Below, piece by piece: positions 15,001 to 18,000 of a DNA stretch of 24,873 nt. Source of the stretch: a virus (lineage: Duplodnaviria; Heunggongvirae; Uroviricota; Caudoviricetes); the IMG/VR virus record IMGVR_UViG_2609459852_000004. The stretch is one strand, 5' to 3'. Numbering within the stretch: position 1 is the stretch's first letter; each line of letters starts with the position of its first letter. Made by a program: the position numbers.

Positions 15001-18000
15001 GATGACTCGCCGTGAGATTGAGCGTGAAGTCTGTTTGTGGGGGCAGCAATGAGCAGGTTAACCGCGATTATCTCCGCTCTGGTTATCTGCATCATCGTCT
15101 GTCTGTCATGGGCTGTTAATCATTACCGTGATAACGCCATTACCTATAAAGAACAGCGCGATAAAGCCACGTACATCATCGCTGACATGCAGAAGCGTCA
15201 ACGTGACGTAGCAGAACTCGATGCCAGATATACAAAGGAGCTTGCTGATGCTAACGCGACTATCGAAAGTCTCCGTGCTGATGTTTCTGCTGGGCGTAAG
15301 CGCCTGCAAGTCGCCGCCACCTGTGCAAAGTCAACGACCGGAGCCAGCGGCATGGGCAATGGAGAAAGCCCAGGACTTACAGCAGATGCTGAACTCAATT
15401 ATTACCGTCTCCGAAGTGGAATCGACAAGATAACCGCGCAGGTTAACTACCTGCAGGAATACATCAGGACGCAATGCCTGAAATAATTTTTTTGCAAATC
15501 ACAAAGTCCATTTAATGAGCCTCGCGATGCGGGGCTTTTTGCAATAAATGCGTACCGCAACGCATGTTTTTTACACCGAACCTGCCCCTTTGGAATGGGC
15601 CTTTGAGGATACCAGTTAGTGCTGGCGAGCCTCGGTGGGCTGGTTTCCTGTGCGGCAAAGGTTCATTTCAAAGAGTAGGTACACGCTATGAAATCATTAA
15701 CCCTCTTCAATCAACCAATTCGTATCGGTGAAGATGGCATGATCTGCCTCACTGATATGTGGAAAGCCAGTGGTAAAAGTGAATCTGAATCTCCGTACCA
15801 CTACCTGCGAAACAAGCAGACCAAAGAGTTCTTAGCCGAGCTGGAGAAAAACCACGAATCTGTGGTTTTTACTGAGCGCGGTGTACACGGTGGAACATAT
15901 GGCGGGAAGTTTGTTGCTTACGATTATGCGGCTTGGTTAAACCCCGGGTTCAAGTACGCGGCCTATAAAGTCCTCGATGACTACTTCACCGGAGAACTTC
16001 AGCATCGCAACAGCTTAAGTGCGCAGCTCAACATGAAATGTCATGAGTTTGACCAGAAGAAAGACATGGCGAGCTTCTGCGGACAAGGACTGGCAGCATG
16101 GCGCTATACGAAGCCAGTGTTGGTCGCTGAGATTAACTCCCTGGCTAACCAGCTGCAGATTACGATCCCCGGGCTTCTGGGATGAGTGATCGTGTTATTG
16201 AATGCGCCTCCAGAGCGGGGCGCGACTTCTCAGAGTTCATGAAAGGCGAGAAGGGCATGATGGAAGCATTGGCCTCGGTGGATGAGTTTGGCGAGCAGCT
16301 GCGCCTCAACGGCTGTGTCAATCATCACTTTGTTAGCTACATGATGCGGAACTCGATCATGCAGGCATTCATGGACATGGCAAAAGCCGAGAGGAAAGAA
16401 GAGCGCCGGCGTAAGCGAGCGGAAGCAAAAGCGAAGTAGCCATTACAAAGCCTATCTACGGGTGGGCTTGATAATGGCTTATACCCTACACGGGATAACT
16501 TAACTGATATCCCTTTTAAAGGATAAAGGTCACATCATGCGCTGTATCGCCGCCGTATTCCCGTATTAACAGAGACCGTAGCCCGACGGGGAACTCCTTC
16601 TGCGCGAGTGTGCGGGAATAATCAAAAACGATGCACACCGGGGTTACCGGGTACACATATTTCATCATGCCAGCGAGTCCGGTTCTGGCACGGAAGAAAC
16701 CGGACGTTATGATTTAGTGCGGAAATATTTGTGTAGTGTTCTGAATGTTCTCAGTAAAGAGTAATGAATTATCAAAGGTATAGTAATACCTTTTGTTTTC
16801 GTGGATATTTGTAATCCATCTGAAAACCCCTGCTGTAGCAAGATTTTTCCTGTATTCGTAAAATGATAACTCTCCTGATTTGAATCCTTTTAAGGTGGCT
16901 TCTATAAGGCATTTATTTTTTGAAAATCTTACATTTACAACCTTACCCTGTCCTTTTATTAAAACCGTATTATCGTTTTCAAGAACAAGATGAATATTCT
17001 CTGTGGCTAAATAGTAAATGTAATGTGAGACATTGTGACGTTTTAGTTCAGAATAAAACCAGTGATAGTTTAAATTATTTCGCACTTTATCGAATATTTG
17101 TTTAAAAATGGCAACCTGAGCCATTGTAGTACCTTCCATGTGATATGAGGGGGGTAGTCTGCTCGATTATCTAAATTGCTTCAATCTGGTCTAACCTGTT
17201 TTCTGAGCAATTCAGTAATGTCACTCTTTTCTTTGTTTGCTTCAGGCGAAACTCTTTTTTCTGAGCACAGTCTCCGGCGGCAGGCTTCAATGACCCAGGC
17301 TGAGAAATTCCCGGACCCTTTTTGAACAAGAGCGATGTTAATTTGTTCAATCATTTGGTTAGGAAAGCGGATGTTGCGGGTTGTTGTTCTGCGGGTTCTG
17401 TTCTTCGTTGACATGAGGTTGCCCTGTATTCAGTGTCGCTGATTTGTATTGTCTGAAGTTGTTTTTACGTTAGGTTGATGCAGATCAATTAATACGATAC
17501 CTGCGTCATAATTGATTATTTGACGTGGTTTGATGGCCTCCACGCACGTTGTGATATGTAGATGATAATCATTATCGCTTTACGGGTCCTTTCCGGTGAT
17601 CCGACAGGTTACGGGGCGGCGACCTCGCGGGTTTTCGCTATTTATGAAAATTTTCCGGTTTAAGGCATTTCCGTTCTTCTTCGTCGTAACTTAATGTTTT
17701 TATTTAAAATACCCCCTGAAAAGAAAGGAAACGACAGGTGCTGAAAACGAGCTTTTGGGCCTCTGTCGTTTCCTTTCTCTGTTTTTGGCCGTGGAATGAA
17801 CAATGGAAGTCAACAAAAAGCAGCTGGCTGACATTTTCGGTGCGAGTATCCGTACCATTCAGAACTGGCAGGAACAGGGAATGCCCGTTCTGCGAGGCGG
17901 TGGCAAGGGTAATGAGGTGCTTTATGACTCTGCCGCCGTTATAAGATGGTATGCCGAAAGGGATGCTGAAATTGAGAACGAAAAGCTGCGCCGGGAAGTT

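Follow-up and report, generated by a model that had tools for sequence, protein, structure and literature searches.

A DUF3950-DUF1398 gene pair beside cos in a lambdoid Escherichia coli prophage reads, on balance, as an exchangeable accessory cassette rather than a toxin-antitoxin module

Accessory ('moron') genes such as bor and lom of phage lambda are non-essential, run antisense to the late operon or are embedded in it, deviate in base composition and are variably present among related phages. The same traits recur in a gene pair that we analysed in IMG/VR virus record IMGVR_UViG_2609459852_000004 (Caudoviricetes), a stretch of 24,873 nucleotides (hereafter the window) that represents a lambdoid prophage of Escherichia coli. 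The first gene encodes a 77-amino-acid (aa) protein of the YlcI/YnfO family (DUF3950; 17181-17414, minus strand, TGA stop included) and the second a 136-aa protein of the YdfO/YbcV family (DUF1398; 16714-17124, minus strand), with the lysis genes on one side and the cohesive-end site (cos) and the packaging gene Nu1 on the other. An original prediction had described the two minus-strand open reading frames (ORFs) as a possible toxin-antitoxin or regulator-effector module; ORF calling together with Pfam, NCBIfam and RefSeq recovered both at the predicted positions and lengths. The Bor and Lom proteins reside in the envelope and have known phenotypes, whereas no signal peptide, lipobox or other export signal is visible in the DUF1398 sequence.

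The nearest described counterpart of the pair is ynfO-ydfO of the Qin prophage, which has the same families in the same order and on the same strand, a spacing of ~57 bp, the 77-aa tail class and a PdhR-box-like palindrome. The DUF1398 protein of the window is 76% identical to YdfO of Qin, the structure of which has been solved by nuclear magnetic resonance (NMR; PDB 2HH8). Unlike Qin, the prophage in the window retains an intact-looking lambda-type packaging module around its cassette. The ylcI-ybcW-ybcV genes of lambda and DLP12 are likewise similar in the N-terminal domain of DUF3950 (94.5% identity over 55 residues), in DUF1398 (76%) and in their position between lysis genes and cos, but they differ from the window by a 613-bp insert with the opposite-strand gene p79/ybcW and by another DUF3950 tail, TSEKRAYTSIKSDEE. 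Judged by these matches, the pair is a Qin-type ynfO-ydfO cassette of lambda-like prophages, already catalogued and functionally unstudied. The 1.4-kb region is present in 4,900 of 5,426 complete E. coli genomes (~90%) in a median of 2 copies, and its annotation in these genome matches is always 'YlcI/YnfO family protein' plus 'DUF1398 domain-containing protein'. The two genes are thus not side by side through chance.

On balance, the evidence favours reading the pair as an accessory cassette in a hypervariable slot between the lysis genes and cos, in which a probable Arc-like DNA-binding protein is followed by a cargo of orphan fold that would not be an enzyme, and not as a toxin-antitoxin module. 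As had been predicted, both genes lie on the strand opposite to all flanking phage genes; these are plus-strand, and the pair is antisense to the late operon. The second gene is indeed AT-rich, with a guanine-plus-cytosine content of 28-35% versus ~50% in the flanks. The predicted variable slot between the lysis genes and the terminase was also borne out: the cassette is swapped between two conserved blocks, 16538-16657 and 17252/17274-17414, and at least seven alternative contents were found. The left block (120 bp, 3' of DUF1398) forms the left edge of the swappable cassette and is 82-93% identical by blastn in lambda, in Shiga toxin (Stx) phages and in an E. coli prophage whose DUF1398 belongs to another subfamily. 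Probably a mosaic boundary sequence, the block overlaps a 50-aa ORF that has no known family.

Alignment with lambda by blastn placed the exchange inside the first gene. Window 16538-17197 corresponds to lambda 46868-47527 with 82% identity, and window 17252-17613 to lambda 48141-48502 with 97% identity. In place of 54 bp in the window, lambda thus has 613 bp that include lambdap79/ybcW on the opposite strand. The 54-bp segment is bracketed by the two copies of a 14-nt direct repeat, at 17196-17209 and 17254-17267. Homology to lambda breaks at 17198-17251 and homology to the Stx phages at 17274, both at about residue 49 of DUF3950. The stretches common to the Stx phages and the window are the first ~47 DUF3950 codons (17274-17414) and the block left of 16657; no DUF1398 lies downstream of DUF3950 in the Stx phages, and in one of their sequences a hairpin with a T-run 3' of DUF3950 resembles a terminator of its own. 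Lambda carries both genes, DUF1398 as lambdap78 and DUF3950 as an intact 64-aa YlcI-like ORF (48109-48303, minus strand). This ORF is unannotated in the RefSeq lambda record NC_001416. The annotation of lambdap78 gives 177 aa from a GTG codon; homologues and the position of the ribosome-binding site favour a 136-aa product.

The two parts of DUF3950 thus delimited behave very differently. Residues 1-49 (17268-17414, minus strand) form the constant N-terminal domain, in which a basic arm is followed by a putative beta-strand (NIRFP) and by two helices with the turn GSGNFS between them. All 33 invariant columns among 10 diverse members fall inside it. The C-terminal tail CSEKRVSPEANKEKSDITELLRKQVRPD (17184-17267, minus strand) is variable; it is the tail class that travels with DUF1398 and co-varies with the downstream DNA. 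The whole protein has an isoelectric point (pI) of 10.9 and matches Pfam PF13132 (E 2e-20, 72.8 bits, cut-off 25) and NCBIfam NF041551 (YlcI_YnfO_N; E 9e-9, 35.2 bits, cut-off 30).

Arc and Mnt of phage P22 are the most similar described proteins to this domain. They share with DUF3950 its small size, the basic N-terminal arm, the strand motif (NIRFP as compared with FNLRWP in Arc and FNFRMP in Mnt) and a G-x-x-N/S turn before helix 2, which reads GSGNFS in the window. Alignment by hhalign placed DUF3950 in register with Arc, though weakly (P 0.012); the register against Mnt was identical (P 0.2), and CopG and a Cro control gave nothing. Searching the DUF3950 profile against PDB sequences returned no match at E 10. 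Unlike Arc and Mnt, DUF3950 adjoins cos instead of lying in an immunity region, and the likeness between them is one of sequence. The DUF3950 protein is a likely candidate member of the ribbon-helix-helix proteins and is probably a small DNA-binding protein of the Arc/Mnt kind.

The DUF1398 protein covers the Pfam PF07166 profile in full (positions 1-119; E 3e-43, 147 bits, cut-off 22), which upheld the predicted family assignment. An alternative start at 17139 would give 141 aa (16714-17139); for the 136-aa start, 17124, the ribosome-binding site is better (GGAAGG, 7 nt upstream), and RefSeq makes the same call. A first AlphaFold2 (AF2) model built from 25 close homologues reached a predicted local distance difference test score (pLDDT) of 52 and was discarded, whereas a deeper alignment with chromosomal homologues gave a pLDDT of 88 and a predicted template modelling score (pTM) of 0.80. 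The model shows the YdfO fold, that is, two helix-helix-three-strand repeats forming a pseudo-twofold alpha/beta domain. The protein has a pI of 9.4 and 16% aromatic residues. Taken with the model, DUF1398 is a soluble basic protein of orphan alpha/beta fold.

A structure prediction of DUF1398 had been proposed among the checks of the pair. The fold search matched YdfO (PDB 2HH8) alone and no toxin fold, and a structure search of BFVD returned nothing significant. Only L27, N43, G99 and Y114 are invariant in an alignment of 33 sequences, and no catalytic signature was seen among them. No toxin family in Pfam, NCBIfam or PADLOC matched the protein. We infer that DUF1398 is a non-enzymatic binding protein. 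The idea of a HEPN toxin was dropped: the Pfam match to HEPN_AbiA_CTD scores 15.8 bits where the cut-off is 27, the histidine of the R-x5-H match is not conserved, and the fold of DUF1398 is alpha/beta, not all-alpha. The labels 'head protein' (PHROG 413) and 'envelope protein' in circulation for DUF1398 were likewise rejected; neither has sequence or fold support, a signal peptide is lacking, and the gene is positioned outside the head module and antisense to it.

DUF3950 loci of IMG/VR were compared in two sets, one of 80 loci with the 77-aa form and one of 78 analysable loci. In the first set DUF1398 lies 57-139 bp downstream of the 77-aa form in 79 of 80 loci (57-60 bp in 78), the single exception being a replacement by the insertion sequence (IS) IS5. 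In the second set residues 1-49 are nearly constant and are followed by at least seven unrelated tails, each with its own downstream DNA. DUF1398 is found 57-58 bp downstream only with the tail CSEKRVSPEANKEK..., in 20/20 such loci; with the other tail classes, an opposite-strand TonB-like ORF, an opposite-strand ybcW or none of the reference genes searched follows. DUF3950 occurs without DUF1398 in at least six of the seven tail classes. A divergent packaging gene precedes DUF3950 in 74 of the 78 loci, either the HNH endonuclease gene, 42 bp away, or Nu1, at a distance of 388-540 bp, and the remaining four loci are rearranged prophages; DUF3950 is thus divergent from the packaging genes in phages of at least two packaging types. 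One further locus with an N-terminally truncated DUF3950 (L241) is too rearranged to inform.

The simplest reading of these alignments is a recombination joint directly after the folded DUF3950 domain. The co-variation of tail and cargo would therefore be a by-product of mosaicism, and the tail would not be a neutralising domain specific to a toxin. This is supported by lambda and DLP12, in which a 76%-identical DUF1398 is paired with a different tail.

Whether the two families need each other was examined by their distribution. In the phage collection, DUF3950 occurs in 155 records and DUF1398 in 43. Taking one genome per species, prophage-type DUF1398 (at least 71% identity) with adequate upstream DNA has DUF3950 upstream in all but one case, at a distance of either ~57 bp or ~690 bp. 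Chromosomal DUF1398 homologues (28-53% identity), in contrast to these, have no DUF3950 within 3 kb in 31 of 31 loci; their hosts are Escherichia (ycgX, adjoining bluR), Shigella, Citrobacter, Kluyvera, Pseudocitrobacter and Salmonella diarizonae. Nor does any small partner gene recur across genera beside these 31 homologues. Distant members are solitary as well; their various neighbours include murQ-like sugar genes, a fimbrial operon and, preceding them, an aryl-polyene gene cluster. In an E. coli prophage, the same slot between Rz and Nu1 is filled by a DUF1398 subfamily of 177 aa, with no DUF3950. DUF1398 and DUF3950 are not obligate partners.

Some of the homologous loci have features of their own. 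A conserved divergent 74-aa ORF (MLEGYFDLDGATG..., no Pfam family) flanks most chromosomal DUF1398 loci of Kluyvera and of another Enterobacteriaceae bacterium, and in three Kluyvera loci (L063, L066 and L069) a 158-aa ORF comes next, the L063 copy of which matches the Pfam cold-shock domain. In Pseudocitrobacter and relatives, one DUF1398 subfamily, marked by a hydrophobic N-terminal extension, is always found after the phosphopantetheinyl-transferase gene that closes an aryl-polyene-type ketosynthase cluster. Many seeming homologues from unrelated taxa were ignored as contaminating lambda DNA. The locus was found in assemblies of Kitasatospora, Pseudomonas, Flavobacterium and Cohnella and in an Arcanobacterium hippocoleae 'plasmid' (CP136411.1, 3,566 bp); the five such assemblies compared are all 98.9-100% identical to lambda between positions ~45.0 and 48.5 kb of the lambda genome, and the sequences are contaminating lambda control DNA. 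Reports of YlcI/YnfO proteins in Arcanobacterium and Metarhizium probably stem from the same contamination.

In a type II toxin-antitoxin system, DUF1398 would be the toxin, and the ribbon-helix-helix protein would neutralise it through its C-terminal tail and would repress their common operon. The pair does resemble CcdA/CcdB, ParD/ParE and RelB/RelE-like systems in gene order, in protein sizes and in having a putative DNA-binding N-terminal domain with a variable tail: a small basic gene of this kind is followed on the same strand, after 56 bp, by a larger one, and the tail class co-varies with DUF1398, the coupling reaching 79/80 in the YnfO-type class. It differs from the ribbon-helix-helix type II systems in that its partners are not obligate, DUF1398 being partnerless in the 31 chromosomal loci and in one prophage subfamily and DUF3950 mostly solitary in phages; moreover, the lambda/DLP12 DUF1398 lies 613 bp from its DUF3950 across an opposite-strand gene. 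DUF1398 has no structural or sequence likeness to toxin families and no invariant catalytic residues, YdfO was presumably made alone in NMR-scale amounts (to judge by entry 2HH8), and the second gene is preceded by its own conserved promoter-like region. With a recombination joint as the simpler explanation of the tail-cargo co-variation, we regard the toxin-antitoxin reading as very unlikely, and this part of the original prediction is not supported. No report of DUF1398 or DUF3950 toxicity was found in the literature.

The regulator-effector part of that prediction fared differently. The gap between the DUF3950 stop and the 136-aa start of DUF1398 is 56 bp, and a terminator scan found no terminator between the two genes. 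For this reason a regulator-effector relation was kept as possible for the arrangement in the window; set against it is the fact that the regulator is mostly found without DUF1398.

The region 5' of DUF1398 (17125-17200, minus strand) was found to be conserved in its own right. It contains the PdhR-box-like palindrome AACAGGTTAGACCAGAT (17184-17200, minus strand), which is conserved between the window, Qin-type, lambda and DLP12-type loci, a promoter-like site from the promoter scan (17166-17193, minus strand) and the GGAAGG ribosome-binding site. Some 75 bp upstream of DUF1398 are kept in the window and in Qin-type, lambda and DLP12-type loci, with or without overlap by the DUF3950 ORF; in lambda and DLP12 this stretch lies 613 bp from DUF3950. 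Downstream of DUF1398 no terminator was called by the scan.

As originally predicted, the pair has no characterised function; full-text searches turned up incidental expression and screen data only, and no functional study of either family. PdhR boxes are present at the ybcV and ydfO loci, and ybcV mRNA is down 10-fold in a pdhR mutant (PMC7660256). Expression of ybcV rises more than 1000-fold when T4 MotB perturbs H-NS silencing (PMC7827196), ybcVW transcripts are up within 5 minutes of DNase intoxication according to a published expression report, and ydfO is up 117-fold on ionic-liquid shock (PMC4077768). Knock-down of lambdap78 by CRISPR interference (CRISPRi) left lambda plating unaffected, and the gene was non-essential in that screen (PMC10695390). 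These published data, the conserved upstream region and the dispensability of lambdap78 together give DUF1398 the hallmarks of a silenced, stress-responsive moron. The published claim that YdfO overexpression protects against oxidative stress (PMC4077768) was set aside, since it looks like a mix-up of YdfO (Qin) with YfdO (CPS-53): the presumed source, PMC3105296, reports YfdO of CPS-53 and never ydfO.

Could both genes be decaying, functionless remnants in defective prophages? Many copies do reside in cryptic prophages, and IS insertions and rearrangements occur at the locus. However, the ratio of nonsynonymous to synonymous substitution rates (dN/dS) is 0.32 for DUF1398 in comparison with lambda, indicating purifying selection and thus a functional gene, and 0.38 for the N-terminal domain of DUF3950. 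Plaque-forming phages, lambda among them, carry both genes intact, and the pair is carried by ~90% of E. coli genomes. Decay is accordingly extremely unlikely in our judgement.

The frame relation between the two genes bears on a further alternative. In Qin-type sequences, ynfO shares its frame with the long form of ydfO, from which a single TGA separates it, and a 233-aa fusion read through by a TGA-to-TGG change was found on 6 contigs. In the window this relation (17139-17183) is broken because the intergenic C run is one base shorter. A split one-component regulator might be imagined, in which DUF1398 would sense a ligand or signal, bind the YnfO tail and tune DNA binding, by analogy with NikR, a ribbon-helix-helix domain joined to a regulatory domain. 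The joint travel of tail and DUF1398, the Qin-type reading frames with their fusion, and the pseudo-twofold alpha/beta domain of DUF1398 without catalytic residues would all suit such a design. Yet the fusion is rare, the in-frame relation is lost in the window, DUF1398 is widespread without a ribbon-helix-helix partner, and the lambda/DLP12 protein has a partner with a different DUF3950 tail; we consider the proposal quite unlikely. Use of the YnfO-YdfO fusion as a 'Rosetta stone' was given up, as it is limited to 6 contigs and the window lacks the frame relation. The 761-member cluster examined in this connection consists mostly of ordinary 136-aa proteins and fragments.

A role in anti-phage defence or superinfection exclusion by the prophage, exerted by the two genes as a unit or by DUF1398 alone, was weighed next to these readings. 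An AT-rich pair that runs antisense to the late genes and occupies one of the variable accessory slots of temperate phages would fit such a role, and the neighbouring p79 of lambda is an activator of the Vulcan system (bioRxiv 10.64898/2026.09.04.749371). On the other hand, no PADLOC model matches either protein: against PADLOC-DB 2.0.0, DUF1398 gave a chance-level hit to Csx23 (E 0.025) and DUF3950 none. DUF1398 homologues also sit in ordinary chromosomal contexts (the aryl-polyene cluster, bluR, murQ-like sugar genes), and full-text searches found no defence phenotype. A defence function thus appears unlikely. According to the same preprint, lambda mutants that escape Vulcan defence lose p79, which its authors ascribe to probable recombination with Qin (bioRxiv 10.64898/2026.09.04.749371); such recombination would give the arrangement of the window.

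Several observations weigh against the accessory-cassette reading that we favour. No Pfam or curated ribbon-helix-helix profile matches DUF3950, even at E 10. The tight link between tail and DUF1398 (79/80 and 20/20) is also what a cognate two-protein system would be expected to show. A binding rather than catalytic role for DUF1398 is inferred from negative evidence. Finally, DUF3950 loci with Nu1 upstream and those with the HNH gene upstream have no operator-like motif in common, and autoregulation by DUF3950 is for that reason unsupported. Two 7-mers common to both kinds of upstream region were considered as a shared operator motif and rejected, as they are estimated to be no more than expected by chance. 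A candidate for an operator or promoter element is a 13-nt imperfect inverted repeat (17484-17516) that lies 70-100 bp 5' of the DUF3950 start codon; its sequence is kept in all loci with Nu1 upstream. A GTG-initiated 37-aa ORF (17430-17543, minus strand) stops 13 nt before the same start codon; lambda has this ORF too, and the region is so highly conserved as DNA that its coding status cannot be judged from conservation.

Under the accessory-cassette reading, the following course of events may be proposed. The N-terminal domain of DUF3950 would form a DNA-binding ribbon-helix-helix dimer like Arc and Mnt. It would be expressed leftward from a promoter near cos, and we propose that this happens mainly in the prophage state because transcription in that direction is antisense to the late operon. 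In the arrangement of the window, DUF3950 and DUF1398 would probably be co-transcribed, and DUF1398 would in addition have a stress-responsive promoter of its own, under silencing by H-NS and the influence of PdhR. The DUF1398 protein would bind a host or phage macromolecule without catalysis and so modulate host physiology. As the comparison of loci shows, the DUF3950 tail and all downstream DNA are exchanged as a block, with DUF1398 as one cargo among others.

A bolder proposal, and in our view an improbable one, makes the 49-residue DUF3950 domain an 'end-of-chromosome' regulator, that is, a plug-in expression platform for whatever cargo stands behind residue 49. DUF1398 would then be an orphan-fold effector that confers a conditional advantage, for example exclusion or counter-defence, on the lysogen or on the incoming phage. 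The DUF3950 domain always lies within ~0.2-0.6 kb of the right cohesive end and reads inward from it. The right cohesive end of lambda is the one that enters the cell first.

The remaining genes around the cassette are all on the plus strand: Rz (15037-15486), a KilA-N protein (15688-16185) and an 85-aa ORF (16182-16439) on one side, Nu1 (17803-18348) and the large terminase subunit (18323-20248) on the other. The cosN cohesive-end sequence GGGCGGCGACCT (17614-17625, plus strand), identified by its match to lambda, lies 200 bp from the start of DUF3950 and is where the virion chromosome has its right end; in blastn, homology to the corresponding end of lambda stops exactly at window 17613 (lambda 48502). 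No RNA family of Rfam matched within 16300-17850.

Elsewhere in the window, Rfam matches above the gathering score identified an isrK Hfq-binding RNA (6415-6491) and a C4 antisense RNA (6516-6603), both on the plus strand; they are contained in, or followed by, an ORF (6055-7218) that carries Ash and Rha domains. The region 6415-6603 looks like a c4-antirepressor immunity module of the P1/P7 type inside a lambdoid prophage. Upstream of the lysis cassette, and on the strand that is antisense to the late genes, the window carries a second moron comparable to nmpC of DLP12: a gene for a general porin (12685-13827, minus strand; Pfam Porin_1, E 2e-151). In the close relative in L001 it is annotated as OmpC, downstream of quuD.

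The genes discussed here are among the last of lambda and of the cryptic prophages of E. coli K-12 to lack an assigned function, and the pair is carried by ~90% of E. coli genomes. Dropping the toxin-antitoxin reading removes a tempting but probably wrong annotation. In its place stands a picture of the locus in which a constant, probably DNA-binding domain by the packaging site is followed by exchangeable tails and cargo. This picture accounts for recombination such as the loss of p79 in Vulcan-escaping lambda mutants, and it predicts the sites at which new lambdoid accessory genes would be found.

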